Notes: generated by a model not told the origin, from the sequence alone. Shown: positions 1,801 through 48,470, counted from the first letter of the stretch. The stretch is DNA of 64,000 bases from an uncultured Acidobacteriota bacterium (GCA_963827655.1 CAWHCF010000002.1:128001-192000); one strand, 5' to 3'. Program-made: numbers and translations.

Positions 1801-4800
1801 TCAATTCAACACTACATTCGCCCTGCCGCCCGGCTGCCCATAGCCCGTCAGGATGATGGTGTTGCTATCCAACGGCAATTGAGACGAGATGTTGATACTC
1901 TTGACTTCACCATTACTCAGACCGACGGTTTGAAACAAACGTCCGTTTATGATGATTTCGATGTACAACACCCCGGGGCTCCCGTTTTGAATTCCTATGC
2001 TGCTCATGGTCGGGGGAATGTTGTCGAGGGTCAGGCTGACCGGCCTGCCTGATTCGGGGAGTTCCAGTAGCAGGCCCGCGGACGTTGCTGTCACGGTTAC
2101 GGTGAAGCTGCAGTTCGCCATGTTGCCGGCCGCGTCCGTGACCCTGAAGGTGTTGGTAGTGACCCCCACCGGGAAGGATGCACCGCTGGCCAGCCCGGCC
2201 GTCTGCATCGTGGTTGCTCCGGGACAGGCATCCGTGCCCACAGGCGCCGTGTAGGTGACCACGGCCGAGCCCGAGCCGGGCGAGCTTTCAGTCACAACTA
2301 TGTTGGCCGGGCAGCTGATCACCGGATTCTCCGTATCGATGACCGTCACCGTGAAGCTGCAACTCGTCCCGGCTCCGTTGGCGCAGGTTACCGTCGTTGT
2401 GCCGACGGGGAAGAACGAGCCGGAAGACGGCGTGCAACTCACCGGCCCGCAACCGCCGGTTACGGTCGGGGCAGGGAAGCTGACGATCGCTCCGCACTGG
2501 CCCGGGTCGTTCGGCACGGTGATGTTGCTTGGGCAACTGATCATGCAGGCCGCCGGAAGGATTGTCGTGACATCTGATGCCGTGTTGTTCGTGGTATTGA
2601 CATCCCCACCCCCCGAGACGGTCGCTGTGTTGGTCACCGATGGGGGTGCGTTGGGTGCAACATCCACCGTGAGTGTCACAGGGGGATAGCTCGCTGCGGG
2701 CGCCAGCGCGTCGCTTCGAGTGCAATTGACCATTGCGCCAGTGATGCCGCAGTTCCAGCCCGCTCCGCTCGCCGCCGTGGGAGTCAGCCCCGTCGGGACA
2801 GTGTCGGACAGGGTGACGGCGCCGCTGGTCGGCGAGCCGCCGCTGTTGGTCACGGTCACGGTAAATTCTGCTCCGGTCTGCCCCTGTGTGAAGTTGCCGG
2901 TGTGGCTCTTCATGAGGCTCAAATCCGGCGCCGACACCACCGTTACGGTGAAGCTGCAGTTCGCCATGTTGCCGGCCGCATCCGTGACCCTGAAGGTATT
3001 GGTAGTGACCCCCACCGGGAAGGCTGAACCGCTGGCCAGCCCGGCCGTCTGCGTCGTGGTTGCTCCAGGACAGGCGTCGGTGCCCACGGGCGCCGTGTAG
3101 GTGACCACCGCCGAACCCGAGCCGGCCGGGTTCTCGGTCGCAGTGATGTTAGCCGGACAGGTGATGGCCGGATTCTGCGTATCGTTGACCGTGACGGTAA
3201 AACTGCACGAGGCGTCCGGCGCCACGCCATTCGAGGCGGTGCAGGTTACCGTTGACGTCCCGACCGGGAATGCGTGCGGTGAGGTGATAGGGGTCGCGCC
3301 TATCCTGCACGTTACGGTCGGCGCCGGGCAGCCGGCCGTCGCCGTCGGCGGAGTAAAAGAGACCAATGCCGTGCACGTCCCCGGATCAGTGTTAACAGTC
3401 TGATTGGCCGGACAGGCCGAGATCGACGGCGGCAACTGCACCGTCATTGACGAGGTCTGCGTCCCGTTGTCCAGCGTCGCCGATACATTGCCCGTGTTCG
3501 GAGTCGGACAGGTCGAGCTGGCGGTGAACAAGGTCGCCGGCCATCAGGCTGCTCAGCGCCGCCGATCCGGGCGAAACGCTCCCCAGCCTGCCGCCGGCTG
3601 AACGTGATGGTCAGCCCGTTCAGCACTACCGGATTTATCGCCGCCCCATTTGTGTTCTGGCTCACGTTCGCCGTGAACGTCTGGGTCCCGCCCGGCGCGA
3701 GCGTCGCGCTGGCCGGCAGCAAGCGCAGGTCTATCCGGGGATCGGCGTCGAATGTCCCGCTGCCCGTCTGGCAACCCGCGGCTGCTGGGGAAGCCGTCGC
3801 ACCCCCACCAGTTGTTCTCCACGCTGGCCGTGCCGCCCGTCTGCCCGATGCCCGAGCCTGACGGCGCCGTATTGCTCACGATCCGGTTCAGGTTGGCCGT
3901 CAGCAAGCCGCTGCTGATAAACAGCGCCCCGCCCGCCACGGTCGCGCTGTTGCCGCTGATCGTGCAGTTGGTGATGGTCGTTAACTGATTGACAAAGGCG
4001 TTCGTCGTCGCCACTCCCCCGCCACTGTCCGACGCGTTGCCGCTGATCGTGCAGTTGTTGATCGTCAGCGGCGAGTTGGCCCCGTCTTCAATCCCCCCGC
4101 CTCTGGCATTCGCGCCCCGCCGTCGCGGTGTTATTGCTGATGGTCACACCTGACAGCGTGGTACTGCCCACCGGGTTCGCCGTTGAAGAGACCGCCGCCG
4201 TCGGCAGACGCGCCGGTTCCCTGCGCCGTGTTGCCTGTCAGGCTGCCTCCCGTCATGTTCACGGTCTGGCCGCCCACTCCGGCGATCAGTATCCCGCCGC
4301 CGTCCGACCCCGAAATGTTGCTCGAGATCGTGCATGTGTTGAGCGTGACGGTCCCGCCAAAACTGTGGCGTATGTTGATCCCGCCCCCGTTGGACCCGAT
4401 GTTGGCCGAGGTCTGGTTGCCTGTGATCGTGCTGTTGCTTATCGTCACATTATGCCGGTCAGCGAACAGATTGATCCCGCCTCCGGTCGCGACGCGCCGC
4501 TGCGGCGTTCAACGTGTCATTGTTCGAGATCGTGCTGCCGGTGATCTGAACCGTGCCCCGAAAAATATTGGTGCCTCCCATCAGATCGCCGCTGTCGATG
4601 TTGATCGCCCCGCCGTAGCTGTTCTGGTTGGCATTGCTGTCAAACGTGCAGTTGGTCACGGTCGTGGTCGGCCCGGGCATCGCTCCCGTGCCGGTCAGGA
4701 AGATATCCAGCGCTCCCCCGGTCTCGGTGAAGGTGCCGATCGTGGGGTTGTTGTTCCTGGTGAACCGAACCGTCAAACCCGAAAGGCTCACGCTCAAGGT

Positions 4801-6649
4801 CGAGAACGTCCCATCCTGGTTGATCCCGATTGCCTTGTCTCCCATGTTGCCCGTGAAGGCGGCATTGCTCGATCCCTGGATGATCGTGTTCGCGGCCCCA
4901 TTGCCCATGATGGTTATGTCCGAGTTGATGTCCAGGTCTCCGCTCGCGGCCGTGTTGTCATCGCCCACCTGCGTCAACTGGATCGGCACGCCGTTCAATG
5001 CGGCCGCGAACGTGATCGTGTCCGCGCCGGCATGAGCATTGGCTTCCTGAACCGCCGCGCGCAGGGAACAATTACCCCCCGAGTCGGCGCACGTGCCGTT
5101 GCCGGCGGCCGCATCATCCGTGTCAGCCGCGGTGTTGACGTTAAAGGCGGCGTGTGACTCGACTACCACGATCACGGGTTCCGGGTGGCTCTGTCGTAGC
5201 ACCACCAGACCAGGCCGCCCGTGCACGTTCAGCCGCATCGGCAGCGCCGCAACCGGCTGGCTATCGGCATCGAACGTGATCGCTTCCCTTCCCCCCGGCG
5301 ATGCTTCTTGCCCTGGCTGCGCGTCCTCCCTGAATGCCACCTGAAGTTGCCGCGCCCCGGGATTCACAACCAGCAGATCATGCGATTGCCGCACCCGATG
5401 CCAGCGTGCTCATCAGCAGCGGCTGCGCGCCGTCGCCTGCGTGCGTGAGGGTCATCGAGGTCCTCTCCGCCACCTCCCAGCTCAGTGCCCCGCTGGGTCT
5501 CGCCCCCCTCAGGTCTGACATCGGCCGGCTCCCTCGTCTCACTTCGGCTACAAGCTGCCGGCGCGCCCGAACCTCTTCCACAGTAAAGGGCCGGGTATCC
5601 AGCGTCCCGCGCGCCACGATCTGGACCGTGCCGTCCTCCGCCGCCACCGCCAGTTCCAGCCGCGCATCCCGATCCCAGATGAAATCGCTCACCGCCGCCG
5701 CTTTCACCCCAAACGGCAGTGCGATCGCCTCCAACTGCCCCGCTCGCTCATCCGGGACACTTCCGTACCCGGAGGCTTCATCATCCTCTCCGTGCAGTAT
5801 GTAGAGCCGGTTGCCCGCGATGATCGCCAGGTCCGTTGCACCATCCTCATCCAATCGCCCCAGGGTCACAAAGGTCGCCGCGGCCGGCAGCGGGTAGGTC
5901 GACGCCGCCTCCGCCGCGACACCCTGGTTCGCTTCATAAACCAGCAGCGCAGGCCCATCCGAACCTACGATCCCCACCACCAAATCCGCCCAGCTATCCG
6001 GCTGAGTCTTCTGCCCGGCCGCCATCGTCGTCAGCAGACCCGGCAACGGAACGGCCCTGGGCTCGTGGAATCCCTGGTTCCCGTCCCCACCCAGCAGATA
6101 GAGCGCCCCGCTTCCCCGCGCCCCTGTGATTATGTCCAGACGCCCATCCCGGTCGAAATCTCCCGTGGCCAGAAACTCCGGCGCTTCCGGCGTCCACAGC
6201 ACTGCCGCTTCGGGGAGAAACGGATCAGGATATGCTCCCTTGATGATGGACTGGATTGTCTCCGGTTTTGTCGGCCCATACGCTTCGGGATTGCCCAGGT
6301 GCAATGTCACCAGGCCTCCGCTCGCGCTGGCATACCCGCAAATCAGGTCCGGAAAACCGTCGAGATTGACGTCATCCGAGGCCAGCGACAGCGCCCGGAC
6401 CTGCCCTTGCTCCAGCGCCAGCAGGTTTCCGCCGTTCGTCAGCCCGGCCCCGGTATACTGCGCGCGCAAATCGCGCCCATTCCGAAAATGGATCCGGTAA
6501 TTGTTCTGCCCCCCGGCTCGCATCGTGATGGCGTCTTCGCGGGAGTCGGCCCTCGAGGCCAGGTACTGATTAGCGTCCACCAGGGCTCCAACGCTCGTGA
6601 GAACTAAAACCGAAAGGCCAAACGCAATCTTTGATGTGAGCCGCTTCAT
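1801..6649 (-). CDS. Giant secreted surface protein B (~1600 aa): signal peptide, FG-GAP/VCBS-like repeats, CSLREA domain, GGA/GGG-rich right-handed beta-helix, HYR x2, DUF11 x1, HYR x2, short C-terminal beta domain (frameshifted in assembly)
   Basis: Stitched from ORFs 5378-6649, 4459-5394, 4131-4448, 3553-4014, 3444-3722 and 1801-3531. GGAGG RBS; MKRLTSKIAFGLSVLVL signal; DVNLDGFPDL and GDFDRDGRLDI motifs; CSLRAAVQEAN; NNWWG; FPVGVTTNTFRVTDAAGNMANCSFTVTV (HYR). Confidence 0.85.
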
Positions 6650-6745
6650 GATTTACCTCCAACGTACATCAGCGAAAGGCGCAAGACGAGTGCCTTGGGT
6701 CTCTCGGCAACTTCAGATTCTCACTCCCATGAACCACTAAACGCG

Positions 6746-9700
6746 CTAATCGGGAACCTGCGGAGCCTTCGAGGGGATGACCGGGACCGCGGTGAGTTGA
6801 GTCTGATACTGGGTCAGAGCGACGACGGCAAACGTCTTCCCTCCCTGCCCAACCAGGACCATCGACCCTTTGAATCTCAGTCGTGAGGGGAGGTATTCGT
6901 GCAGGAACCGTGCGACCTGGTGCAGAGGCCGGAGCGGGTTCAGCTCCGGCGGACTGAGCGTATCGGTGATCAATCCGTTTTCGTCGAGAACAACAAGTTT
7001 GATGTTGATGTTGTCGTTTCCGGAATTTGTGACGGCGAAGCCGGTGTAGCGGCTCTGCGTATTGTCGTTATCGACCACGATTGTGGCGGCATTGAGAGGC
7101 TGGCCGCCCAGAATCCCCGCCGCGCTCCTCAAGAGCCCGCCCTCGACCAACTGAAAGTAAGCGGCGCCGCTCAAGAAGCCAGCCGACGCTACCAGGCGAG
7201 CCGAACCGGTCCGCACGGGCTCCGAAGGTTCGACAGCCGAGATCTGCAGAATTCTGGTTCCACCGGGCGGAACGGAAAATGGAAAGGAGGAACCGGTCAC
7301 CTCTCTCCTCGGAAGCGAAGAGGGCCTGGCTGCCGGGGCGGAAGGATCGGTCAGAGAAACAGGAAACGGATTACCGTTCTGATCGGTGAGGATGAGAGTT
7401 CCGGTTGCCGCGACGGATCCGGTATTTGAGAGGAACAGGCCTGTCGAATAGCCCGCCCCCACTGTCACTTGACCGAACGTGTACGGCCCTCCGGCCACGA
7501 TCAGGGTCACGTCACTGGCCGACTCGCCGCCACCTTCGTCCCCGCCACCCGAGACCAATGCCACATTGGTGACCGCCCCCAGGGCATCCGCCGCAACCGT
7601 GACCACCAGCGTGATAGGCGGATAACGCCCTCCCGCAGCCAGCGGGTCGCTCCGGGTGCAGATGACGGTCTGGCCGTTGATCGTGCAGGGCCAGCCGGAC
7701 CCGAAAGCAGAAGTGGGTCGCAATCCTGCCGGGAGACTGTCTTCGACCTTCACCTGGCCGTCGGTAGCAACCTGGCCGGTATTAGAGACAGTGATCGTGT
7801 AGGTCGCGCCCGTTTGTCCCCGGGTGAAGATGCCCGAGTGCGTCTTGGTGATGCTGAGGTCCGGACGCAGGAAAAGGGTTTCGGAGTCTTCGGCCGTGTT
7901 GTTGGCAGGATTGGCGTCTCCGCCTCCCGAGACTCTGGCAATATTGGTCACCGTTGACCCAACCGGGATGTCGGGGGCGACATCTACCGTAAGGGTGACG
8001 GTGGGGTAGCTCACTCCCGGCGCCAGAACATCGCCTCGGGAACACGTCGCGGTTAGCCCGGAGACCTGGCAGTTCCAGCCTGTTCCGTTAGCCGTCCTGG
8101 CGGTCAAGCCGAGAGGCAGGTCGTCGACAAGATTGACAACACCACTGCTTGGCCCGACACCCCGGTTGGCCACCGTGATGAAAAAGATCACCCCGGACTG
8201 ACCCGGCCCGAAGCTGCTCGGATGGGTCTTCACGATCCTGAGGTCCGGGCCAACGCTGATGGTCACCGTGTCGCTTGCCGTGTTATTGCTTGAATTGACG
8301 TCACTGCCGCCGGCAACGCTCGCCGTGTTGGTTACCGATGAGGGGGCGTTGGGTGCCACATCCACCATGAGGGTGACCGGCCCGTAACTCGCTCCCGGCG
8401 CCAGCGGGTCGCTTCGCATGCAGCTGACCATTGCGCCCGAGACGCCGCAGGCCCAGCCCGGACCGCTCGCGGCGGTGGGAGTGAGTCCCGCAGGAACATT
8501 GTCGGCAAGGGTGACCGTGCCGCTGGTCGGGGAGCCGCCGGTGTTGGTCACGGTCAGGGTAAATTGTGCTCCGGTCTGCCCCGGCATGAAGCTACCGACG
8601 TGACTCTTGGATACGATCAGGTCCGGTCCGGGAAGGATAGTCGTAACATCGGTTGCGGTGTTGTTCGCGGCATTGACATCGCCGCCGCCCGAGATGGTCG
8701 CTGTGTTGGTTACCGATGGAGGGGCGTTGGGTGCCACATCCACCGTGATCGTGATCGGCCCATAGCTTGCTCCCGGCGCCAGCGGATCGCTTCGCGTGCA
8801 ATTGACCATTGAGCCCGAGACGCCGCAGTTCCAGCCCGCGCCGCTCGCTGTGGCTGGAGTAAGTCCCGAGGGGACAGCGTCGCTCATGGCTACGGAACCT
8901 GCGGTTGGCACGCTGCCGATATTAGCCACCGTTACCGTGAATATTGCTCCGGTCTGCCCCTGTACGAAACTACCCACGTGGCTCTTGGAGATGATCAGGT
9001 CCGGATCGGTGAGACCGAATGGCGTCGGAAGGAAGATTGTCGTCACATCCGTTGCGGTGTTGTTCGTGGTATTGACCTCGCCGCCGCCCGAGATGACCGC
9101 TATGTTGGTCACCGATGGAGGGGCGTTGGGTGCCACATTCACGGTGATCGTGATCGGCCCATAGCTCGCTCCCGGCGCCAGCGGGTCGCTTCGGCTGCAA
9201 TTGACCGTTGCGCCGGTGATTCCGCAGGTCCAGCCCGCTCCGGTCGCCGCGGTGGGAGTGAGTCCTGCAGGGACATCGTCGCTCATCGTCACGGAGCCGG
9301 CGGTTGGCATGCCGCCGCTGTTGGTCACGGTCACGGTGTATATTGCTCCGGTCTGCCCCAGCGTGAAATTACCCGCGTGACTCTTGGAGATGATCAGGTC
9401 CGGTCCCGGAGTGATTGTCGTGACGTCCATCGCGGTGTTGTTCGTGGCATTGATATCGCCGCCGCCCGAGATGGTCGCTATGTTGGTCACCGATGGGGGG
9501 GCGTTGGGTGCGACATCCACCGTAAGGGTGACTGGCCCGTAACTCGCTCCAGGCGCCAGCGGGTCGCTTCGGGTACAACTGACAAGGGCGCCGATCATTC
9601 CGCAGATCCAGCCGGCGCCGCTCGCTGCCGTGGGAGTGAATCCCGCAGGAACATTGTCCATCAGGGTGACGAGACCGCTGGTCGGGGAGCCACCGGAGTT

Positions 9701-12700
9701 GGTCACGGTCACGGTAAATTGCGCTCCGGTCTGCCCCGGTGTGAAACTACCCACGTGACTCTTGGAGATAACCAGGTCCGGCCCCGGAAGGATTGTCGCG
9801 ACATCTGATGCCGTGTTGTTCGTGGTATTGATATCGCCGCCGCCCGAGACGGTCGCTGTATTGGTCACCGACGGGGGGGCGTTGGGTGCAACATTCACCA
9901 TGAGGGTGACCGGCCCGTAACTCGCTCCCGGCGCCAGCGGGTCGCTTCGGCTGCAATTGACCATGGCGCCGGTGATTCCGCAGGTCCAACCGGCGCCACT
10001 GGCCATTGTGGCGAATGAGACCCGTCGGGACACTGTCGGCCACGGTGACGGCGCCGCTGGTCGGGGAGCCGCCGCTATTGGTCACGGTCATGGTAAATTG
10101 TGCTCCGGTCTGCCCCTGCACGAAATTACCCGCGTGACTCTTGGAGATGATCAGGTCCGGCCCCGGAGTGATGGTCGTGACATCGGTTGCGGTGTTGTTC
10201 GTGGTATTGACATCGCCGCCGCCGGAGAGGGTCGCTATGTTGGTCACCGATGGGGGGGCGTTGGGCGCAACATTCACCGTGATCGTGACCGGCCCGTAAC
10301 TCGCTCCCGACGCCAGCGGGTCGCTGCGAGTGCAATTGACCGTTGCGCCGGTGACTCCGCAGTTCCAGCCCGTGCCGCTCGCTGCCGTGGGAGTCAGTCC
10401 AGTCGGAACGCTGTCGACCACAGTGACGGCGCCGCTGGTCGGTGAGCCGCCGCTGTTGGTCACGGTTACGGTAAATTGTGCTCCGGTCTGCCCCTGTATG
10501 AAGCTACTCGCGTGACTCTTGGAGATGATCAGGTCCGGCCCCGGCGTGATGGTCGTGACATCGGATGCGCTGTTGTTTGCGGTATTGACATCGCCGCCGC
10601 CGGAGACGGTCACTGTGTTGGTCACCGATGGGGGGGCGTTGGGCGCGACATCCACGGTGATCGTGACCGGCGCGTAACTCGCTCCCGGCGCCAGCGCGTC
10701 ACTGCGGGTGCAATTGGCCGTTGCGCCGGTGAGGCCGCAGGTCCAGCCCGTGCCGGTCGCCGCGGTGAGAGTCAGTCCCGCAGGGATAGTATCGACCAGG
10801 GTGACGGCGCCGCTGGTCGGAGAGCCGCCGCTGTTGGTCACGGTCACGGTAAATTGTGCTCCGGTCTGCCCCTGTATGAAATTACCCGCGTGACTCTTGG
10901 CGACGGTCAGATCCTGCCCCGGAATGATGGTCGTGACATCGGATGCGGTGTTGTTCGCGGTATTGACGTCGCCGCCGCCCGAAATGGTCGCTGTGTTGGT
11001 CACCGATGGGGGCGCGTTGGGTGCAACATCCACCGTGAGTGTCACAGGGGGATAGCTCGCTGCAGCCGCCAGCGCGTCGCTTCGAGTGCAATTGACCATT
11101 GCGCCAGTGATGCCGCAGTTCCAGCCCGTTCCGCTCGCCGCCGTGGGAGTGAGTCCCGTCGGGACAGTGTCGGACAGGGTGACGGTGCCGCTGGTCGGCG
11201 AGCCGCCGCTATTGGTCGCCGTCATGGTGTAGGTGGCTCCCGTCTGCCCCTGTCTGAAGTTGCCGGTGTGGCTCTTCGTGAGGCTCAAATCCGGCGCCAA
11301 CACCACCGTCACGGTGAAGCTGCAGTTCGCCATGTTGCCGGCCGCGTCCGTGACCCTGAAGGTATTGGTAGTGACCCCCACCGGAAAAGCGTTACCGCTG
11401 GGCAGCCCGGCCGTCTGCGTCGTGGTTGCTCCAGGACAGGCGTCGGTGCCCACAGGCGCCGCGTAGGTGACTACCGCCGCGCCCGAGCCGGGCGGGTTCT
11501 CGGTCGCAGTGATGTTAGCCGGGCAGGTGATGGCCGGATTCTCCGTATCGTTGACCGTGACGGTAAAACTGCACGAGGCGTCCGGCGCCACGCCATTCGA
11601 GGCGGTGCAGGTTACCGTTGACGTCCCTACCGGGAATGCGTGCGGTGAGGTGATAGGGGTCGCGCCTATTCTGCACGTTACGGTCGGCGCCGGGCAGCCG
11701 GCCGTCGCGGTCGGCGCAGTAAAAGAGACCAATGCCGTGCACGTCCCCGGATCAGTGTTGACCGTCTGATTGGCCGGACAGGCCGAGATCGACGGCGGCA
11801 CCTGCACCGTCATTGACGAGGTCTGCGTCCCGTTGTCCAGCGTCGCCGATACATTGCCCGTGTTCGGAGTCGGACAGGTCGAGCTGGCGGTGAACAAGGT
11901 CCCGGCCATCAGGCTGCTCAGCGCCGCCGATGCGGGCGAAACGCTCCCCAGCCCGCCGCCGGCGAACGTTATGGTCAGCCCGTTCAGCACTACCGGATTG
12001 ATCGCCGCACCGTTTGTGTTCTGGCTCACGTTCGCCGTGAACGTCTGGGTCCCGCCCGGCGCAAGCGTCGCGCTGGCCGGCAGCAAGCGCAGATCTATCC
12101 GCGGGATCGGCGTCGAATGTCCCGCTGCCCGTCTGGCAACCGGCGGCATTGGGGAAGCCGTCGCACCCCCACCAGTTGTTCTCCACGCTGGCCGTGCCCC
12201 CCGTCTGCCAGATGCCCGAGCCTGTGGGCGCGGTATTGCTCACGATGCGATTCAGGTTGGCCATCAGCGAGCCACTAACGATAAACAGCGCCCCGCCCCC
12301 CAGGGTCGCGCTGTTGCCGCTGATCGTGCAGTTGGTGATGGTCGTTAACTGATTGACAAAGGCGTTCGTCGTCGCCACTCCTCCGCCAATGTCCGACGCG
12401 TTGCCGGTGATCGTGCAGTTGTTGATCGTCAGCGGCGAGTTGGCCCCGTCTTCAATCCCCCCGCCTCTGGCATTCGCGCCTGCCGTCGCGGTGTTATTGC
12501 TGATGGTCACACCCGACAGCGTGGTACTGCCCACAGGGTTCGCGTTGAAGAGCCCGCCGCCATCGGCCTCCGCGCCGGTTCCCTGCGCCGTGTTGCCTGT
12601 CAGGCTGCCTCCCGTCATGTTCACGGTCTGGCCGCCCACTCCGGCGATCAGTATCCCGCCGCCGTCCGACCCCGAAATGTTGCTCGAGATCGTGCATGTG

Positions 12701-15017
12701 TTGAGCGTGACGGTCCCGCCAAAGCTGTGGCGTATGTTGATCCCGCCGCCGTTGGACCCGATGTTGGCCGAGGTCTGGTTGCCTGTGATCGTGCTGTTGC
12801 TTATCGTCACATTATGCCGGTCAGCGAACAGATTGATCCCGCCCCCGAACGCCGACGCGCCCGCTGCGGCGTTCAACGTGTCATTGTTCGAGATCGTGCT
12901 GCCGGTGATCTGAACCGTGCCCCGAAAAATATTGGTGCCTCCCATCAGATCGCCGCTGTCGATGTTGATCGCCCCGCCGTAGCTGTTCTGGTTGGCATTG
13001 CTGTCAAACGTGCAGTTGGTCAGGGTCGTGGTCGGTCCGGGCATCGCTCCCGTGCCGGTCAGGAAGATATCCAGCGCTCCCCCGGTCTCGGTGAAGGTGC
13101 CGATCGTGGGGTTGTTGTTCCTCGTGAACCGGACCGTCAATCCCGAAAGGCTCACGCTCAAGGTTGAGAACGTCCCATCCTGGTTGATGCCGATCGCCTT
13201 GTCTCCCATGTTGCCCGTGAAGGCGGCATTGCTCGATCCCTGGATGATCGTGTTCGCGGCCCCATTGCCCATGATGGTTATGTCCGAGTTGATGTCCAGG
13301 TCTCCGCTCGCGGCCGTGTTGTCATCGCCCACCTGCGTCAACTGGATCGGCACGCCGTTCAATGCGGCCGCGAACGTGATCGTGTCCAGCGCCGCGCATG
13401 AGCATTGGCTTCCTGAACCGCCGCCCGCAGCGAACAATTACCCCCCGAGTCGGCGCATGTGCCGTTGCCGGCCGCCGCATCATCCGTGTCAGCCGCGGTG
13501 TTGACGTTAAAGGCGGCGTGTGACTCGACTACCACGATCACGGGTTCCGGGTCGGCTCTGTCGCAGCACCACCAGACCAGGCCGCCCGTGCACGTTCAGC
13601 CGCATCGGCAGCGCCGCAACCGGCTGGCTATCGGTATCGAACGTGATCGCTTCCCTGCCCCCCGGCGATGCTTCTTGCCCTGGCTGCGCGTCCTCCCTGA
13701 ATGCCACCTGAAGTTGCCGCGCCCCGGGATTCACAACCAGCAGATCATGCGCTTGCCCACCCGATGCCAGCGTGCTCATCAGCAGCGGCTGCGCGCCGTC
13801 GCCTGTGTGCGTGAGGGTCATCGAGGTCCTCTCCGCCACCTCCCAGCTCAGCGCCCGCGTTGGGTCTCGCCCCCCTCAGGTCTGACATCGGCCGGCTGCC
13901 TCGTCTCACTTCGGCTACAAGCTGCCGGCGCGCCCGAACCTCTTCCACAGTAAAGGGCCGGGTATCCAGCGTCCCGCGCGCCACGATCTGGACCGTGCCG
14001 TCCTCCGCCGCCACCGCCAGTTCCAGCCGCGCATCCCGATCCCAGATGAAATCGCTCACCGCCGCCGCTTTCACCCCAAACGGCATTGCGATCGCCTCCA
14101 ACTGCCCCGCTCGCTCATCCGGGACACTTCCATACCCGGCCGCTTCATCATCCTCTCCGTGCAGTATGTAGAGCCGGTTGCCCGCGATGATCGCCAGGTC
14201 CGTTGCACCATCCTCATCCAATCGCCCCAGCGTCACAGAGCGTCGCCGCGGCCGGCAGCGGGTAGGTCGACGCCGCCTCCGCCGCGACTCCCTGGTTCGC
14301 TTCATAAACCAGCAGGGCAGGCCCATCCGAACCTACGATCCCCACCACCACATCCGCCCAGCTATCCGGCTGAGTCTTCTGCCCGGCCGCCATCGTCGTG
14401 AGCAGACCCGGCAACGGCACGGCCCTGGGCTCGTGGAATCCCTGGTTCCCGTCCCCAGCCAGCAGATAGAGCGCCCCGCTCCCCCGCGCCCCTGTGATTA
14501 TGTCCAGACGCCCATCCCGGTCGAAATCTCCCGTGGCCAGAAACTCCGGCGCTTCCGGCGTCCACAGCACTGCCGCTTCGGGGAGAAACGGATCAGGATA
14601 CTCTCCCTTGATGATGGACTGGATTGTCTCCGGTTTTGTCGGCCCATACGCTTCGGGATTGCCCAGGTGCAATGTCACCAGGCCTCCGCTCGCGCTGGCA
14701 TACCCGCAAATCAAGTCCGGAAAACCGTCGAGATTGACGTCATCCGAGGCCAGTGACAGCGCCCGGACCTGCCCCTGCTCCAGCGCCAGCAGGTTTCCGC
14801 CGTTCGTCAGCCCGGCCCCGGTGTACTGCGCCCGCAAATCGCGCCCATTCCGAAAATGGATCCGGTAATTGGTCTTTCCCCCGGCTCGCAGCGTGATGGC
14901 GTCTTCGCGGGAGTCGGCCCTCGAGGCCAGGTGCAGATTGGCGTCCACCAGGGCTCCGACGCTCGTCAGAACGAGAACCGAAAGGCCAAACCCAATCTTT
15001 GATGCGAGCCGCTTCAT
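6746..15017 (-). CDS. Giant secreted surface protein A (~2750 aa): same head as protein B, HYR x2, ten DUF11-like repeats, distinct ~250 aa C-terminal domain (frameshifted in assembly)
   Basis: Stitched from ORFs 14214-15182 (true ATG 15017, MKRLASKIGFGLSVLVL), 13745-14326, 13507-13839, 13359-13541, 11752-13437, 9747-12149 and 6746-10033. Repeats read PDLxISKSH..F.QGQTGA.FTVTVTNSGGSPTSG...GWxC...CTRSD...TNTAT.SGGGD.N..NN.ASD. Confidence 0.85.
7495..11295 (-). repeat. Intragenic tandem array of ten ~378-bp (126 aa) DUF11-type units
   Basis: Unit starts recur at about 11295, 10920, 10542, 10164, 9785, 9407, 9005, 8630, 8250 and 7865, each with a conserved Cys pair. Confidence 0.85.
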
Positions 15018-15031
15018 ATGGACGGACTTAA

Positions 15032-16044
15032 CTAGTAGACGATTCTTGGTGTTTCTTCGTGTCTTCGTGTCCTGGTGGTATTTGTTTCTGCTCTTGCCTG
15101 CGCGAGCAGCACGGTTGAGGCGACCGCCGGAGAGTAGGACTTCGCTTCCTGCGCCTGATCGTTTGAAAGCGTTGCCGTCCAATAGTTGCTGGCTTCGGTG
15201 AGCGTGAGCTTGAATTCGACGTCGCCCTGTTCTTCCCTGAAGGGATTTACTCTATAGATGACAGGCGACCAGCTGGTGGTTTGTCTGGTCGTCAATCGGA
15301 CACCGCCGGTCAAGGTTGCCTCTGCCCAGACGGCAAAACAATTGATCTGATTTGTGTCTCGCAGCTTCCAGCGGGCCGTCAGGTTATTCAGATTCGGGGG
15401 TGATTTGTCGGCGGTCAGATCGGCTCGTACGAGCTCCTGCGGTTCGCTCAGAAGCTTAAGCCTGTCTCGGTTGGTCAATCCGAGGGGATGGTTCAGAAGG
15501 AGCGACTCGAAATAGCCGATATTCGACCGGAATGCCTGCCGGGAGTCCCCGGCGGTTCTGATCGAGATGACCGCCGGCGGCAACCAACGCGACTGAATCG
15601 GGAATCAGCACACCGCCCGGTTTCAGAAATCTCTCGCGGGCGTCGATCATGATGGGAACGATCGTGTTCATCGAAGACCAGGCTGCCCATAGTTTCCGAA
15701 ATGACGACGTCGAATTCGCGGTTGAGTTGAACCTGTCTGGAATCCCCCTGAATGACCTCCACGCGGCTGGCCACGCCATTGTCGCGGGCAAGCGTTCGAA
15801 TCAGCCCGATCAGTAGCTGATCCTGTTCGATCGCCACGACCCTTCGGGCTCCCAACGCGGCCGCCGCGATAGCCCAAACGCCGGTCCCCGATCCGATATC
15901 GAGCACGCTCGATTCGTCGCTGATAGTCTTTTTCAGGGCGCGGTAAAACAGCCGGTTTCTATTGGCATCGCTGAGAAGCTTTTCGTGTCCCGCCAGAAGC
16001 TGATTTACGTGGTCATACAATCTGGCTTCGGCATTATTCTCCAC
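15032..16044 (-). CDS. Class I SAM-dependent methyltransferase with protein-arginine-methyltransferase (PRMT)-like motifs (two frameshifts)
   Basis: GTG start at 16044 after AGAAGGGA. HEKLLSDANRN, VLDIGSGTG, VAIE, DVVISETMGSLVFDE (double-E loop), ARERFLKPGGVLIP, C-terminal TTSW. Stitched from ORFs 15493-16134, 15456-15791 and 15032-15583. Confidence 0.8.
15041..15088 (-). repeat. Family-1 repeat copy inside the 3' end of the methyltransferase ORF
   Basis: Reverse complement is gaaacaaataccaccaggacacgaagacacgaagaaacaccaagaat, encoding ETNTTRTRRHEETPR. Confidence 0.8.
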
Positions 16045-16091
16045 ACATTCCCTTCTGAGGGCTCGATCCTGGTGCTTCGTCTGAGAAATAC

Positions 16092-16135
16092 GAAACAAAT
16101 ACCGCAAAGACCGAAAGACACCAAGAAACACCAAG
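16092..16135 (+). repeat. Family-1 repeat copy
   Basis: gaaacaaataccgcaaagaccgaaagacaccaagaaacaccaag. Confidence 0.7.
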
Positions 16136-16137
16136 GG

Positions 16138-16662
16138 TCAACCCCTTGGCGGAAAGATTCCCTGCAGGGCGATGATGAAATTCAGGACGACGTAAGGCGA
16201 CATGTTGTTGTGCGGCTGACTTGAACCCGTCACAGCAAACGCCTGAGGACTCATCGTCGTATTTGGCGCAGCGGCAAAAAGCATTGGCGGCGTTCTGCCC
16301 GGCAGAGACGACCACGCCCGGCCCGTGGGAGATGCCTGGTTTCCGCCCCCCACGGTGGCTCCCACAGGATGTCCGTGCGCGGGCATTTCCGACTCGAGGA
16401 GGGTCACAGATGACGAACCGCCCTGTTGGCCCAGGTCGTAGATGCTCAAGCCGGCACCCTGGCCCTGATGGATCGGCACGCTGCCTTGCAGGTTGGGCAG
16501 GCCGAAGGTTGTCCTGCCGTCACCACCGTAGGTGGTCCCCAGGAGTGAAAACAGCGCCGTGTTCTGTGAGATTGACATGAGCTGGCCGTCACACAACGCC
16601 CAGCCCTTCGGTGCGAAATTGAATCCGACGATTCTGATTTCAGCGACAAATGGATCGCTCAT
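16138..16662 (-). CDS. Phage tail collar domain protein (microcystin-dependent protein MdpB-like), paralog 3
   Basis: MSDPFVAEIRIVGFNFAPKGWALCDGQ...LFSLLGTTYGGDGRTTFGLPNLQG...QPHNNMSPY..NFIIALQGIFPPRG; GGAG RBS; ATG at 16662. Confidence 0.9.
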   Translation of the reverse strand: MSDPFVAEIRIVGFNFAPKGWALCDGQLMSISQNTALFSLLGTTYGGDGRTTFGLPNLQGSVPIHQGQGAGLSIYDLGQQGGSSSVTLLESEMPAHGHPVGATVGGGNQASPTGRAWSSLPGRTPPMLFAAAPNTTMSPQAFAVTGSSQPHNNMSPYVVLNFIIALQGIFPPRG

Positions 16663-16676
16663 GGTCTCTCCTTGTG

Positions 16677-17171
16677 TCAGTTCCGCGACGGGAATATCCC
16701 AACCAGCGCGATGACGAAATTGATGACGAGGTAGGGCTGCGTGTTTTCGTGGGGCTGGCCTCCTCCTGCCGGAGCATCTAATGTCTGATTCATCATACCG
16801 TCCGACTTGGACGAATACGATCCGGGCAATGCAGCCCAGACGCCGTTTGCCGGGGTTCCCTGGGTCGGCGCGAGCGAGCTGGCCTGCGCGACGTGCGTGT
16901 GAGCGGGCATCTCGGACATGATCAGTGTGTGAGCCGCCTCGCCCCCCTTTGCGCCCTGCGTCAGGCCGCTGCCCATATGCACGGGAGAGCAGCCCCGGAG
17001 GTCCGGGAGAGCGAAGGTGGTCTGTCCATTTCCGCCGTACATCGTTCCCAGCAGCGAAAAGAGCGCCTGATTCTGGTTGATGGGGAGCAACTGGCCATTG
17101 CACAATGCCCAACCTTTGGGGGGGAAATTAAAGGAAACCATCTTGACCTCGCCTAAGAATGCTTCCGACAT
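16677..17171 (-). CDS. Phage tail collar domain protein (MdpB-like), paralog 2
   Basis: MSEAFLGEVKMVSFNFPPKGWALCNGQ...YGGNGQTTFALPDLRG...QPHENTQPY...GIFPSRN; AAGGAG RBS. Confidence 0.9.
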   Translation of the reverse strand: MSEAFLGEVKMVSFNFPPKGWALCNGQLLPINQNQALFSLLGTMYGGNGQTTFALPDLRGCSPVHMGSGLTQGAKGGEAAHTLIMSEMPAHTHVAQASSLAPTQGTPANGVWAALPGSYSSKSDGMMNQTLDAPAGGGQPHENTQPYLVINFVIALVGIFPSRN

Positions 17172-17267
17172 GGTTGATTTCTCCTTCAGAATCGCTTCAG
17201 CTTTCAGCGATGAGTTTAATGAGCCTCTGAAACCGGTCTGACCCTGATCACGGAATGCCGGTATTCC

Positions 17268-17777
17268 TTAGTTCTGAGACGGGTAAATCCCCTCCAGCGC
17301 AATGATGAAGCTTATGACGAGGTACGGCATCATGTTGTCGTGCGGCTGGCTTCCGCCGTCGTTCTTCATGCACGCCGAACTCATCACATTAGCGGTGGGT
17401 GGTGAGTCGCTATAGATCGTCTGGTTTGAAGCAGAGGCTGCCCACACGGCGTTCTGCGGAGACCCCAGTTCGCCAGCCGTAGATTTGCATTGCGGCGGGT
17501 GTGCGTGAGAAGGAATCTGTTGAGTGGTCAGCGTAACCGACTCTACCCCGCCCTTCTGGCCTATCGTGAACCCGCTGCCTTGATGGATTGGAATACGACC
17601 CTGAAGATCGGGCAACGCGAAGGTCGATTGGCCATCGCCTCCGTAAGTAGTGCCTATGAGCGAAAAGAGCGCGTCGTTCTGCGAAATCGGGAGCAGTTGC
17701 CCGCTGCAGAATGCCCACCCCATAGGCGCAAAATTCCCGCCAAACATCCTGATTTCACCAATAAAGGGAGTAGACAT
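17268..17777 (-). CDS. Phage tail collar domain protein (MdpB-like), paralog 1
   Basis: MSTPFIGEIRMFGGNFAPMGWAFCSGQ...YGGDGQSTFALPDLQGR...QPHDNMMPY...GIYPSQN; GAGGAG RBS. Confidence 0.9.
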   Translation of the reverse strand: MSTPFIGEIRMFGGNFAPMGWAFCSGQLLPISQNDALFSLIGTTYGGDGQSTFALPDLQGRIPIHQGSGFTIGQKGGVESVTLTTQQIPSHAHPPQCKSTAGELGSPQNAVWAASASNQTIYSDSPPTANVMSSACMKNDGGSQPHDNMMPYLVISFIIALEGIYPSQN

Positions 17778-17805
17778 AGCCGTTCTCCTCTATTTTGAGT
17801 GCCCT

Positions 17806-17878
17806 GTTTTCGTTGTCTTGGTGCCCAAGTGGTTAGTTTTTGTTCCGCCCGCTAACCACAAAGACACGTAAAACGCCA
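17806..17878. repeat. Family-1 repeat, imperfect inverted pair in the leader of the collar genes
   Basis: gttttcgttgtcttggtgcccaagtggttag ... ctaaccacaaagacacgtaaaac. Confidence 0.6.
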
Positions 17879-17900
17879 ACACTAGTCGGATTGAAAATGC

Positions 17901-17940
17901 TCAGCCGGGGGAAGGGCTTTTCAGCCGGGGGAAGGGCTGT
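17901..17940. repeat. 20-bp tandem direct repeat downstream of the collar-operon promoter
   Basis: tcagccgggggaagggcttt tcagccgggggaagggctgt. Confidence 0.85.
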
Positions 17941-17980
17941 TCTGCTACGCAAGCACAACCGCAACTGATAAAGTGGCCGG

Positions 17981-18009
17981 ATTCTAAACTTCGGCCAGAT
18001 GAGAGTCAA
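17981..18009 (-). promoter_or_regulatory. Sigma70-type promoter for the collar / methyltransferase / surface-protein genes
   Basis: Minus strand TTGACT-N17-TAGAAT, with an AT-rich stretch upstream. Confidence 0.6.
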
Positions 18010-18060
18010 CAGATTATGCTGTTAAAAAACTTTTACAGAGTCGAGTAGGCCCGGCCATGA

Positions 18061-18260
18061 GAGGCTGTTGCAAAAAACTCAGCTCTACCCTCTAATGCGG
18101 CTGCAGACACTTTACGAAGCCTCATGTGGCGACGGGTCACTGAGACCGTCGCAAGTAACGTGATCGGGAGGATTTGGCCTTAAAAAGTTCTTTCGTGCCA
18201 CTAGCGGGCCGGACGGGCTTGATAGCCCGTCCGCACATGGGGTCGTTTTGCGACAGTCTC
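18061..18260. mobile_element. 200-bp MITE-like element (family 2)
   Basis: Imperfect 15-bp terminal inverted repeats GAGGCTGTTGCAAAA / TTTTGCGACAGTCTC; internal hairpin cggacgggcttgatagcccgtccg; homologous copy at 54343-54611. Confidence 0.65.
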
Positions 18261-18294
18261 GCAAGGCCGGGATTAGACGTGCATCAGTAACCAA

Positions 18295-18782
18295 CTAAGT
18301 TGGGCGCCACTCCATTAATACCTGGATGCCGTTGTCTTCTCGCGCAGAGAAGCCCAGCCGCGCGAATAAACGCTGCGCCCGGCATCACGATCCACGTAGA
18401 TGCTGAGCGCCCTCGCGCTTCCGGCCGCTTCGGCCATCAAGGCTTTGATCAGCGGGGTGCCGATCCCAAGGCCGCGGTGTGCCGGCAGCAGCGCGATATC
18501 AAGGATGCGGATCTCCTGCGCGCGCCGGTCGACATAGAGCCGCCCCACCGGCTGGCCGTTGTTCAGGATGACGTGGTGCTCCGCGTCGGGATACTCACTT
18601 TTGTAGAACCGCTGCTGCGCCGCGAACTGGAACCGGATGAAGGCGGCGCGCTGCGCCTCGTCCCAGGGCACGAGCGCCAGTTCCTCGGCGCGCGTGCCGG
18701 CGTAAACGGCGCGGAGAAACTCCTCGTCCTCGGCGCGCACCGGGCGCAAGCTTACGGCATTGGCATCACTGTTGGTTGTCAT
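18295..18782 (-). CDS. GNAT N-acetyltransferase (collar-cluster type), paralog 2; one frameshift near 18385
   Basis: MTTNSDANAVSLRPVRAEDEEFLRAVYAGTRAEEL...ILDIALLPAHRGLGIG; after the shift RAQRLFARLGF...VLMEWRPT-stop (TAG 18297-18295). Confidence 0.85.
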
Positions 18783-19087
18783 GGCTCCGCCTTGCGCTTG
18801 CGATTGAACACCGCCTCGTAGGTCAACCCCTCGTCGTCCCTGGCGATCGGCACCAGGAAGAGCCGGCCGCTGCCCAGCTGTTCGTGCCGCAATTGATAGA
18901 GCCATTGCTCGGGGGGCGCCTCGAGCGGCGCGCGGAAGGTGAGCAGAAACTGCTCCTGGCGCGGCGATGGCGATTTATCTTCGACGCTGATCAGTTCGAT
19001 CTCCAGCGTCGTGTCTTCATTGAGCCGCATCTGGAATCGGGTGTTGACGTGCGGAGCGAAATCTTCGTAGTGCAGGGTGTCGAGCAT
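18779..19087 (-). CDS. DUF6916-like small protein
   Basis: MLDTLHYEDFAPHVNTRF...EQFLLTFRAP...LYQLRHEQLGSGRLFLVPI...YEAVFN; TGATG and ATGA overlaps with both GNAT genes. Confidence 0.8.
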   Translation of the reverse strand: MLDTLHYEDFAPHVNTRFQMRLNEDTTLEIELISVEDKSPSPRQEQFLLTFRAPLEAPPEQWLYQLRHEQLGSGRLFLVPIARDDEGLTYEAVFNRKRKAEP

Positions 19088-19575
19088 CAGGGTTCTTCTC
19101 CTATGGTTCTCCGGGACGGCTGCCATTCCATCAAGTAGTACAAGCCGATGTCGGCGAGCGGCGTAAATCCCAACCGCCGGTAGAGCCGCTGCGCCGGATT
19201 GGACTTCTCCACGTGCAGCCGCACCGGCTTGCCCGACCGCGCCGCCTCGTCGAGCAACTGTTGAAGCAGCGCAGCGCCAATTCCCCGCCCGCGCCATTCC
19301 GGCAGCAGCGCGATATCCACCAGGCGGATTTCGTCCGCCAGGCGGGAAACCAGCAATCGGCCGATCGCGCGATCCACCTCGACGATGATCTGCGGGTCGG
19401 CGTTCGGGAACTCGGCGTAGTGGGCCTGCTGCGCGCGGAATTGCAGGCTCAGGAAGGCTTCCTGCTGCGCGCTGCTCCAGTCCAGGGCGGCCAACTCCGC
19501 GGCACGGGTGCTGGCGTAGAGCCGATAGAGGAACGGTTCGTCTTCGGGCAGGGCGGGACGCAGCGTGACGATCAT
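19087..19575 (-). CDS. GNAT N-acetyltransferase (collar-cluster type), paralog 1
   Basis: MIVTLRPALPEDEPFLYRLYASTRAAEL...LVDIALLPEWRGRGIG...NPAQRLYRRLGF; C-terminal part of ORF 19087-19995. Confidence 0.88.
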   Translation of the reverse strand: MIVTLRPALPEDEPFLYRLYASTRAAELAALDWSSAQQEAFLSLQFRAQQAHYAEFPNADPQIIVEVDRAIGRLLVSRLADEIRLVDIALLPEWRGRGIGAALLQQLLDEAARSGKPVRLHVEKSNPAQRLYRRLGFTPLADIGLYYLMEWQPSRRTIGEEP

Positions 19576-19654: not shown

Positions 19655-19701
19655 GAAACAAATACCACCAGGACGCGAAGACACGAAGAAACACCAAGAA
19701 T
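19655..19701 (+). repeat. Family-1 repeat copy
   Basis: gaaacaaataccaccaggacgcgaagacacgaagaaacaccaagaa. Confidence 0.8.
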
Positions 19702-19793
19702 TTTCTTGACAATACCCCCCGGCACACACCGAATCCTAGCCGGGGATCGAGCAAATCTGAGTGCAGCAGTCTTTTTCATTCGGAGGTTGTCCG

Positions 19794-22700: not shown

Positions 22701-23218
22701 TGCCGTTCGGGCGCGGCAAGAGGTGGAACCCGGCCAACGGCGCGCTTAGCCGGATCGCGAGCGGCTGGCAGATCAATCTGATCGGTGTGATGCAAGGGGG
22801 CATTCCCCTCACGGTGCGCGGCGCCAACAACTTCCAGGCTGACCGGCCGAATTCCACCGGCCAGAGTGCCAGCCTGCCGGGCGATCAGCGCTCCGCGCAG
22901 CGCTGGTTCGACACGACCCAGTTCGTGAATCCTCCGGACTTCACTTTCGGCAATGTCAGCCGCACCATTCCCGATGTGCGCCATCCTGGCGCGATCAACT
23001 TCGACGTGTCGGTCATCAAGGACACGCAGATCACCGAGCGATTACGGCTGCAATTTCGCGCGGAAGCGTTTAACGTGCCCAACCACGTGAATCTCGGATT
23101 GGTGGACGATACCTTCGGCGCCGGCCCCGATGGGAGGAATTCCCGTGCCCAGTTCGGCACCATCACTTCAGCCCGGGACGCTCGCATTCTGCAATTTGGC
23201 TTGAAGCTGATTTTTTGA
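19794..23218 (+). CDS. TonB-dependent receptor (Oar-like, carboxypeptidase-regulatory N-domain) no. 1
   Basis: GGAGG RBS and ATG at 19794, with a probable 1-nt indel in the signal peptide; GTISGTVSDPSGA, LPLNGRN, YEFLRND, C-terminal QFGLKLIF. Confidence 0.9.
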
Positions 23219-25880: not shown

Positions 25881-26250
25881 ATCGCTGTCCACCCCGGTTC
25901 CTCAAGAACTTCTACGACCAGGCAGATTTACCTAAAAAAGCATTTCATCGAAGAAGAGAAACTAGTAAAACAGATCTGCTTGCCGGCCAAGCGTGCTCGG
26001 CGAATCCCCCCGGTGCCCGCGTCCACGACGCACAGTTCCAGTACAATCCCCCACCTTTCGACATGCGTATCGACGCACCACGCCTTCCTGGCCATGAGTC
26101 TTGGCGGGCACGGATGGCAGCAGCGATCGCCAGGAGCAGAACGTGCTCGACAGATCTCGTCCTCGGAGGCCGGTCGTATTCGCTCCATCTGTGATTCGTT
26201 CAGTTGGGCCGAGAGGTCCGGAGATACTTCTGAATTCAATGGAGGTGCGT

Positions 26251-48370: not shown

Positions 48371-48427
48371 CACTGCGTGATTTGATTTGACGCGTCGCCG
48401 CCCACTGTGCAAGGCTGAATTCATCCC

Positions 48428-48442
48428 TGGCACCCTCTTTGC
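48428..48442 (+). promoter_or_regulatory. Sigma54 (-24/-12) promoter for TonB receptor no. 3
   Basis: TGGCAC-cctct-TTGC with exact GG-N10-GC spacing, about 29 nt before the ATG. Confidence 0.6.
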
Positions 48443-48470
48443 CAATTCAATCCCCCTACGGAGGCATTTC

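Follow-up and report, generated by a model that had tools for sequence, protein, structure and literature searches.

A conserved non-phage gene module of stand-alone Collar proteins, N-acyltransferases and DUF6916, and a possible instance beside two giant repeat-protein genes of an uncultured Acidobacteriota bacterium

The described systems closest to the gene cluster considered here include the tips of T4 gp12, gp37 and other phage tail fibres, which carry the Collar domain (PF07484) and an HxH motif that, in gp12/gp37-type tips, binds metal within the trimer. The cluster occupies positions 1801-19575 of a 64,000-nt stretch of DNA from an uncultured Acidobacteriota bacterium (this whole stretch is referred to as the window) and encodes three Collar proteins, two GNAT-type N-acetyltransferases, a DUF6916 protein, a methyltransferase resembling protein arginine methyltransferases (PRMT-like) and two giant repeat proteins. 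The window collars match the long tail fibre 8kec (7e-8), T4 gp12 (1ocy, 1e-3) and 9qgo in the PDB. Whereas T4-type fibres possess a shaft and a baseplate-attachment region, these collars consist of the tip part only, about 170 aa, and lack shaft and virion-attachment region. Phage-fibre-like adhesins used by a cell are said to occur in Bdellovibrio, where the mosaic adhesive trimer (MAT) proteins reportedly form long homotrimeric fibres, each from a single gene; compared by description only, both systems would be trimeric fibre-like adhesins in cellular service, the trimer being putative for the module treated here.

In the virophage DSLV2, three consecutive PF07484 proteins co-purify in a 1:1:1 ratio and run at ~55 kDa on native gels, and the trimer appears as 16-nm fibres and binds Synechococcus cells in an enzyme-linked immunosorbent assay, according to the excerpted text of the report (PMC12724248). 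The same excerpt describes features that recall the module, namely co-oriented genes for collar proteins of ~19 kDa, a position-wise phylogeny, a conserved collar and a variable head, a likeness of family and description rather than of directly compared sequences. The DSLV2 triplet differs in being a virion part encoded beside a minor capsid gene, whereas the module is located on chromosomes or megaplasmids and is accompanied by GNAT, DUF6916 and giant genes, with no capsid gene. A stand-alone bacterial Collar protein in a non-phage operon is also exemplified by RhiB of the Rhizobium rhiABC genes (COG4675, 'microcystin-dependent protein MdpB'), although that operon comprises rhiA, rhiC and quorum-sensing genes, and the excerpt of the source reports no GNAT, DUF6916 or giant in it (PMC13133039). 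RhiB is at best a distant relative, because the R. leguminosarum rhi plasmids are not among the 60 plasmid collar records listed at E<=1e-10. MrpC was considered as a further collar relative on the cell surface and rejected, the excerpted source describing it as the CT pilin, with an unrelated fold (PMC12397347). An initial annotation, made from the window sequence alone, regarded the function of such gene sets as unresolved; consistent with this, full-text literature searches returned no paper mentioning DUF6916 and no description of a collar/GNAT/DUF6916 module.

Open reading frame (ORF) calling yields nine co-oriented genes on the minus strand, as had been annotated, and Pfam recovers every family that had been named. 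GNAT1 (19087-19575) is an intact N-acetyltransferase of 162 aa (Acetyltransf_1, E 1.7e-13) that is matched over its full length and in one frame by its orthologues in two loci of the survey described below, L003 and L011. It is followed by an intact 102-aa DUF6916 protein (18779-19087; PF21880, 89.3 bits against a cut-off of 27, E 1.8e-25) and by GNAT2 (18315-18782), an acetyltransferase paralogous to GNAT1 that Pfam identifies and that has a frameshifted C-terminus. The proposed translational coupling of these three genes is apparent at both junctions, where start and stop codons overlap: the TGA of GNAT1 (19089-19087) and the ATG of the DUF6916 gene (19087-19085) have one base in common, the A, and the stop of the latter and the start of GNAT2 together form the ATGA at 18782-18779. 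A gap of 537 nt separates GNAT2 from three intact collar genes, Col1 (type 1, 169 aa, 17268-17777, E 1.2e-29), Col2 (type 2, 164 aa, 16677-17171, E 1.1e-27) and Col3 (type 3, 174 aa, 16138-16662, E 7.5e-28), whose products match PF07484 with 96-102 bits against a cut-off of 24 (E about 1e-30 to 1e-27). The PRMT-like S-adenosylmethionine (SAM) methyltransferase gene (15032-16134; PrmA 4.5e-13, PRMT5 1.4e-5), giant gene 1 (6746-15016) and giant gene 2 (1801-6649) complete the cluster.

Recurrence of this arrangement was surveyed with a nine-row DUF6916 alignment, taking one genome per species, and the window proteins were then located by tblastn in the 30 loci obtained. The loci derive from Acidobacteriota, Blastocatellia, two metagenome-assembled genomes (MAGs) titled Heliomicrobium, Bacteroidetes, several Alphaproteobacteria, Desulfobacteraceae, a delta-proteobacterium, Acidimicrobiia, Solirubrobacterales, Paenibacillus and Opitutaceae, such that the claimed recurrence of collar, GNAT and DUF6916 genes beside large surface proteins holds across many phyla. 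All of the 30 loci except L015, hence 29, encode a GNAT of the same subfamily, and 10 have the GNAT-DUF6916-GNAT arrangement. Collars are found in 26, comprising 18 complete triplets, 6 singles and 2 sets cut by contig ends; they are absent from L004, L006, L010 and L015, of which L006 ends 680 nt past GNAT2. A methyltransferase together with an FG-GAP/CSLREA giant was detected in no locus other than the two most closely related ones, L003 and L011, and these two components are therefore considered a lineage add-on outside the core.

According to Pfam matches of the 31 biggest neighbouring ORFs, a large repeat protein directly adjoins the collars in 16 of the 30 loci; only 24 collar loci extend far enough for a judgement, and the 16 are among these. 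The domains of these neighbours include Ig-like, cadherin, DUF11, DUF7933, He_PIG, Big_3_5, Big_9, PKD, fn3, T9SS sorting and IPTL-CTERM, and the giant gene may lie on the same strand downstream, on the same strand upstream (L030) or in divergent orientation (L021, L023, L024). None of 93 other flanking ORFs from 19 loci has such surface-protein domains. Adjacency in 16 of 30 loci and in three arrangements is hard to explain other than by a functional link between collar and giant.

Plasmid records give a similar picture from the collar side. Collars were detected in 67 of these at E<=1e-10, most of the 60 listed having three matching places each, and all 17 plasmid records with DUF6916 are also among the collar records, again with three places each. 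Seven annotated plasmid or chromid loci of cultured bacteria, from Ruegeria sp. TM1040, S. meliloti, Deinococcus ficus, Paenibacillus sp. 37, Aminobacter, Comamonas and Spirosoma, each encode three proteins named 'tail fiber protein' in RefSeq. Six of the seven have a GNAT gene, which in Spirosoma is replaced by a formyltransferase gene, and in six the adjacent protein is 1400 to >4000 aa long, the Deinococcus neighbour being a 900-aa protein without an assigned name. Five of the large neighbours carry the RefSeq names choice-of-anchor D, Ig domain, Ig-like, YDG and cellulose-binding, and the Aminobacter protein of >4000 aa is called 'hypothetical'. DUF6916 is encoded in four of the seven loci, including Aminobacter and Comamonas, in which small 'hypothetical' ORFs correspond to PF21880. 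The tightest core of the module is thus collars plus an N-acyltransferase, with DUF6916 and a giant neighbour frequent, not obligatory. In the Spirosoma oryzicola plasmid (7433-14696), the collar triplet is followed by the formyltransferase-family gene and a gene for a 1487-aa 'cellulose binding domain' protein; neither GNAT nor DUF6916 was found at this locus, where a different N-acyl donor takes the same position.

Collar proteins next to no other recognizable tail gene could be the residue of a prophage, a tailocin or the tail-fibre region of an extracellular contractile injection system, and several features invite that explanation: the collars match tail and tail-fibre PHROGs as well as fibre chains in the PDB, RefSeq labels them 'tail fiber protein', and an integrase gene, the single one among the flanking ORFs, lies 1 kb away in L002. 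The initial annotation had noted the absence from the window of genes for capsid, terminase, sheath, tube, baseplate and integrase, and none of these families emerged from Pfam analysis of 33 large ORFs or from comparison of 19 ORFs (those without a Pfam match plus some others) with PHROGs, in which SbcCD gave the only matches outside the collars. The 33 large ORFs from the rest of the window instead encode five TonB-type barrels, OmpA, PhoD, SbcCD, a PQQ dehydrogenase, a kinase, TPR proteins and esterases, and no tRNA gene is present in the 64 kb. Phage structural families are likewise absent from the 93 flanking ORFs of the 19 related loci, a search of 50,697 phage records gave no match to DUF6916, which also lacks a PHROG, and the same non-phage partners have been kept across phyla. 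In PHROGs the collars match internal or C-terminal stretches of far longer phage tail proteins; identity to the best phage proteins listed is at most ~39%, and below 60% for all 248 phage records, compared with 45-72% among the bacterial loci. The context of the locus is cellular and non-phage, and a phage-derived remnant, already largely refuted, is very improbable. The module is real, conserved, non-phage and undescribed, and its collars would represent a variant of domesticated phage receptor-binding proteins.

The collars fall into three conserved types. A tree of 70 collars, made by a quick method with Shimodaira-Hasegawa-like approximate likelihood ratio (SH-aLRT) support only and omitting the 137-aa L026 sequence, separates type 1 (15 rows including Col1, support 97), type 2 (17 rows including Col2, support 88) and type 3 (Col3 and nine others, support 88, with an adjoining set of four, support 81). 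Of the 21 triplets that the tree contains, 14 have one member in each of these groups; gene order varies, being 1-2-3 in the window, L003 and L011 and 2-1-3 in several others, while four alphaproteobacterial triplets form position-wise groups of their own and single-collar loci fall within or beside type 2. That three products of an ancient triplication are always kept together suggests non-redundant subunits. All three window collars contain a GG-x-QPH-x-N motif, and the HxH motif (SHAHP in Col1, AHTHV in Col2, AHGHP in Col3) is invariant in 14-row alignments of each type, as H91/H93 in types 1 and 2 and H96/H98 in type 3. Both ends of the collars are conserved and the middle is variable, as expected of a binding head. 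The initial annotation had proposed that the three collars form a (hetero)trimeric fibre or tip, for which support is indirect, consisting of the three conserved types, their presence as one each per triplet and the virophage precedent; the idea of a 1:1:1 collar heterotrimer is well motivated. Co-folding of Col1, Col2 and Col3 with DUF6916 gave DUF6916 scores of 0.25 and 0.30 relative to a mark of 0.32 and, run without controls, carries no weight either way. Nearly all of 71 collars start with M-[S/A/G/T]-x-P-F/Y, N-termini compatible with Met removal and N-terminal acylation, a weak indication. The single collar of L026 (6778-7290) is frame-broken in appearance, and the motif at its C-terminus shares the reading frame of the following 1625-aa Big_3_5 protein (2003-6880, minus strand), representing either a frameshift in this MAG or a collar-giant fusion.

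The explanation that we favour, still tentatively and at a little under an even chance, is that the region is one instance of the conserved cellular, non-phage module, with collars, GNATs and DUF6916 encoded beside a large repeat protein. Such a module would have as its core one or three stand-alone collars of ~170 aa, equivalent to the receptor-binding tips of phage fibres without the shaft, together with one or two small GNAT N-acyltransferases and usually a DUF6916 protein of ~100 aa, and would adjoin a large repeat protein that bears a signal peptide and is of variable make-up. Col1, Col2 and Col3, one of each ancient type, may assemble 1:1:1 into a short, metal-stabilized trimeric tip, the variable head of which could bind a surface glycan or another ligand. 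From gene linkage, the tip and the neighbouring giant adhesin might act jointly in cell-cell or cell-surface attachment, and the translationally coupled GNAT-DUF6916-GNAT unit could mature a component by N-acylation; the PRMT-like methyltransferase and the tandemly duplicated CSLREA/DUF11 giant would be additions of this lineage. The most far-reaching proposition, that the GNAT/DUF6916/collar set is a domesticated phage receptor-binding module whose product, a hypervariable heterotrimeric tip for ligand binding, cooperates with giant adhesins, is rather doubtful. If true, it would define a new class of cell-surface recognition system, one requiring dedicated acylation and an export route for fibre proteins without signals.

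Several observations weigh against this explanation. The survey started from a single marker, DUF6916, and includes several close relatives, so that its counts of 30 loci are not independent. Eight of the 24 judged collar loci lack a giant, its place being taken by Asn-synthase-like genes in four of them and otherwise by DUF3089, an AMP-binding enzyme or an ABC exporter. DUF6916 is not a universal partner of collars, as a local profile did not find it in three of the seven plasmid collar loci. Nothing in PDB or BFVD matched the fold of DUF6916 at E<=1e-3, and for a natural GNAT-DUF6916 fusion (P0121; mean predicted local distance difference test score, pLDDT, 89.3) both domains are modelled confidently with a disordered linker and a predicted template modelling score of 0.60, no fixed interface between GNAT and DUF6916 being predicted. 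The neighbouring large proteins have no common domain on which a collar trimer could dock, and all-against-all BLASTP of 18 neighbouring giants disclosed no region common to all. The collars begin M-[S/A/G]-x-P-F-x-G-E-I and, judged by eye, have no signal peptide; their location on the surface is unsupported, because in addition no conserved export system is encoded beside them. The window locus itself may be non-functional in this genome since four of its genes are frame-broken, as detailed below.

The missing signal peptides also speak for a serious rival, in which the collars remain inside the cell, either as substrates or scaffold of a modification pathway (acetyl, formyl, methyl, sulfo or hydroxyl) or by mixing with the fibre subunits of an incoming phage and so opposing their assembly, the giants being neighbours for regulatory or island reasons. 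A cytoplasmic N-acyltransferase accompanies the collars throughout, as GNAT in 29 of 30 loci and as formyltransferase in Spirosoma, and other loci add genes for Asn-synthase-like proteins, sulfotransferases, Asp/Asn beta-hydroxylases or FkbM. Counted on the same side are the detection of COG4675 proteins in soil metaproteomes, as given in an excerpt of the source (PMC5579227), and the positive selection test (Z=3.7) for tail-collar paralogues of Ca. Solibacter, given likewise in an excerpt (PMC3174227). PADLOC-DB 2.0, on the other hand, contains no family for GNAT1, DUF6916, GNAT2 or Col1-3, the sole match being a generic SAM-domain one of the methyltransferase to mad2, and a giant secreted protein adjoins the collars in more than half of the surveyed loci, across phyla and in all three arrangements. 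An intracellular role is judged unlikely.

In place of a giant, Sphingomonas, Stakelama, Erythrobacter and an Opitutaceae MAG (among L016, L022, L027, L029 and L021) have an Asn-synthase-like gene next to the collar/GNAT/DUF6916 set. Sulfotransferase genes occur further along in L016, L027 and L029, Asp/Asn beta-hydroxylase genes in L027 and L021, an FkbM methyltransferase gene in L016 and ABC-transporter ATPase genes in L021 and L029. The Asn-synthase-type loci look like a modification-enzyme variant of the module.

The two acetyltransferases of the window retain the acetyl-CoA motif R/Q-x-x-G-x-G/A (RGRGIGAAL in GNAT1 and HRGLGIGT in GNAT2) and are generic GNATs, no NCBIfam equivalog reaching its cut-off (the best, RimI, 46.9 bits against 86.4). 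DUF6916 is a large family: 321 of 322 candidates proved to be homologues, and a profile search collected 7,703 cluster representatives (50% identity) at E<=1e-3 and 3,506 at E<=1e-10. Its AlphaFold2 model (pLDDT 93.7) consists of one helix and six strands; Psb28 (template modelling score, TM, 0.44-0.48) and VgrG/gp44 hub domains (TM 0.32-0.40) were rejected as fold relatives, being too weak, and the ESM Atlas returned DUF6916 clusters alone. Three of five longer DUF6916 homologues are GNAT-DUF6916 fusions, all single-contig metagenome proteins that could be read-through artefacts; such fusions and the overlapping codons in the window tie DUF6916 to GNAT rather than obviously to the collars. 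In the alignment of the P0121 fold, the GNAT rows are shortened, MAFFT having misplaced their C-termini. A further, diverged DUF6916 copy, frequently encoded on the other strand, is located close to the first one in several loci, namely L007 (10903-11118, minus), L014 (10887-11198, minus), L017 (9583-9879), L020 (1937-2269, minus) and L036 (6985-7443), among the loci examined.

The extra enzyme of this lineage, annotated from the outset as PRMT-like, was evaluated through its intact orthologue in L003, a protein of 359 aa whose matches to chains of PRMT1, PRMT6 and CARM1 have E-values between 7e-20 and 1e-16. The alignment to PRMT1 residues 49-290 (E 7e-20) covers the Rossmann domain and part of the beta-barrel, and motif I (VLDIGSGTG) and the SE...DE loop are kept, such that by sequence the designation PRMT-like appears justified. 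PRMT1, PRMT6 and CARM1 are eukaryote-type enzymes, whereas that of the module is bacterial, ~360 aa long and encoded between collar and giant genes.

Two secreted proteins of about 2750 and 1600 aa had been described at the end of the cluster. The lengths agree with those obtained by reading through (2756 and 1615 codons); open frames of such length do not exist, however, the longest ORF within 1801-15016 being 1095 aa, and giant 1 (15016 to 6746) and giant 2 (6649 to 1801) are divided into six and five ORF pieces, respectively. Their secreted status was judged by eye from Sec-like N-termini. Giant 1 was delineated from its ORF pieces, repeats, Pfam matches and frames relative to L003 and to P0126 and P0127, two intact relatives named 'CSLREA domain-containing protein' in their source, and comprises the Sec-like N-terminus, FG-GAP, CSLREA/beta-helix, HYR and about nine DUF11 repeats of 378 nt. 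Giant 2, delineated from ORF pieces, Pfam and colinearity with intact P0127, has the same architecture with four HYR and one DUF11. TIGR04214 (CSLREA_Nterm) matches the window at 4459-5394 with 34.7 bits and P0127 with 32.6 bits (cut-off 25). The two giant genes have a common 5' part of 4.1 kb, encoding the N-terminal region, in which the copies agree at 96% of positions (150 mismatches, 15 gap columns). Identity to the N-terminal query amounts to 88% for P0126 (1580 aa) and, over 423 aa, to 83% for P0127 (1616 aa); intact relatives of the giants span 1573-1616 aa. When P0126 and P0127 are mapped onto the window they run colinearly through both giants while switching frames, P0127 on giant 2 passing through -2, -3, -1, -2 and -3.

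The gene set is hence not intact in the window: giants 1 and 2, the methyltransferase and GNAT2, four of the nine genes, are frame-broken. Comparison with orthologues and between copies indicates a total of ~18 single-base indels in 17.8 kb. About seven affect giant 1 (14241, 13857, 13553, 13395, 13388, 12102 and about 10030) and about eight giant 2 (5391, 4498, 4490, 4181, 4118, about 3785, 3599 and 3536). Two in the methyltransferase gene (near 15663 and at 15510-15583) distribute it over frames -3, -1 and -2. The single indel in GNAT2, at about 18360-18381, places the last ~25 aa in another frame, which reads RLGFSAREDNGIQVLMEWRPT and moves the true end to near 18301; high-scoring segment pairs with the orthologue accordingly occur in frames -1 and -3. 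These breaks could be genuine decay, leaving only the collars, GNAT1 and DUF6916 intact and the other four as pseudogenes. Their density, compared with two split genes in the ~44 kb outside the locus, speaks for decay, as do the location of most indels outside long homopolymers and the breakage of the methyltransferase and GNAT2 genes, neither of which is repeated within the window. The ratio of non-synonymous to synonymous change (dN/dS) between the 4.1-kb copies is nevertheless ~0.24 (86.8 synonymous differences at 1065 sites against 60.2 non-synonymous ones at 2982), each inter-indel block having been taken in its stop-free frame, a choice that is uncertain in short blocks; old neutral decay is disfavoured because, with seven to eight indels per copy, it would have pushed the ratio towards 1. 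Further, the indels gather in the 96%-identical duplicate and the DUF11 repeats, and error is favoured because consensus polishing fails where copies are near-identical. Close relatives are intact, including the methyltransferase in L003 and L011, and frameshifts are seen outside the locus as well, where a TonB-type OMP_b-brl_4 receptor gene (48387-49475/49255-51675) and SbcC (35539-36966/36926-38458) each fall into a pair of overlapping ORFs that differ in frame, as found in the Pfam and PHROGs scan. The frameshifts are somewhat more likely to be consensus or assembly errors, or very recent events, than old pseudogenes, and genuine decay of the locus is regarded as less likely than not.

Collar-domain 'tail fiber proteins' have been annotated in numerous bacteria from soil, from the sea and from plants, and as a matter of routine they are taken for prophage debris. 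The survey places them in a conserved cellular module in which they are accompanied by an N-acyltransferase, in most cases by DUF6916 and, at about two thirds of the judgeable collar loci, by a giant surface protein, and for annotation purposes module collars should not count as prophage markers; repeat-rich adhesin loci in this assembly type, in turn, probably carry many uncorrected indels. If the collars form heterotrimeric tips, they would constitute a second independent cellular reuse of phage receptor-binding hardware, after the reported Bdellovibrio fibres, and a testable function would become available for DUF6916, a family with thousands of members and no literature. Some carriers, such as Ruegeria sp. 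TM1040, Sinorhizobium and Ensifer, can be cultured and manipulated genetically, which makes the module directly testable.

A scan of the locus for regulatory signals gave two promoter-like and six terminator-like sites, no excess over the 1.6 and 4.9 given by shuffled sequences; the positions of these sites hint at three units, with sites before GNAT1, before Col1 and, as a hairpin, after Col3. In the gap between GNAT2 and Col1, an 18-nt direct repeat, AGCCCTTCCCCCGGCTGA, is present twice in tandem with a 20-nt period (17901-17938, minus strand), and a promoter-like site (18009-17981) lies just upstream of the pair. A GT-rich element of 46 nt is confined to the joints of the window locus, where none would be expected by chance: one copy is directly upstream of GNAT1 (19655-19700, minus), a further copy after Col3 (about 16090-16135, minus), an inverted copy before giant 1 (15043-15088, plus) and a partial copy after giant 2 (1693-1713, minus), with the element also at about 1752-1778. 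The copies after Col3 and before giant 1 constitute inverted repeats that bracket the methyltransferase gene, and downstream of giant 2 a partial copy in inverted orientation might fold into a hairpin of ~13 bp. The element was not found in the other 35 loci and belongs to no Rfam family, the Rfam search of positions 1-20500 giving only one sub-threshold snoRNA chance match. Elsewhere in the window are four TonB-type receptor genes of the CarboxypepD_reg plus OMP_b-brl_4 type (19706-23218, 26101-29634, 48387-51675 and 56115-59417), one of them divergent from GNAT1, and the same type of receptor gene follows the GNAT-DUF6916-GNAT unit of L010.

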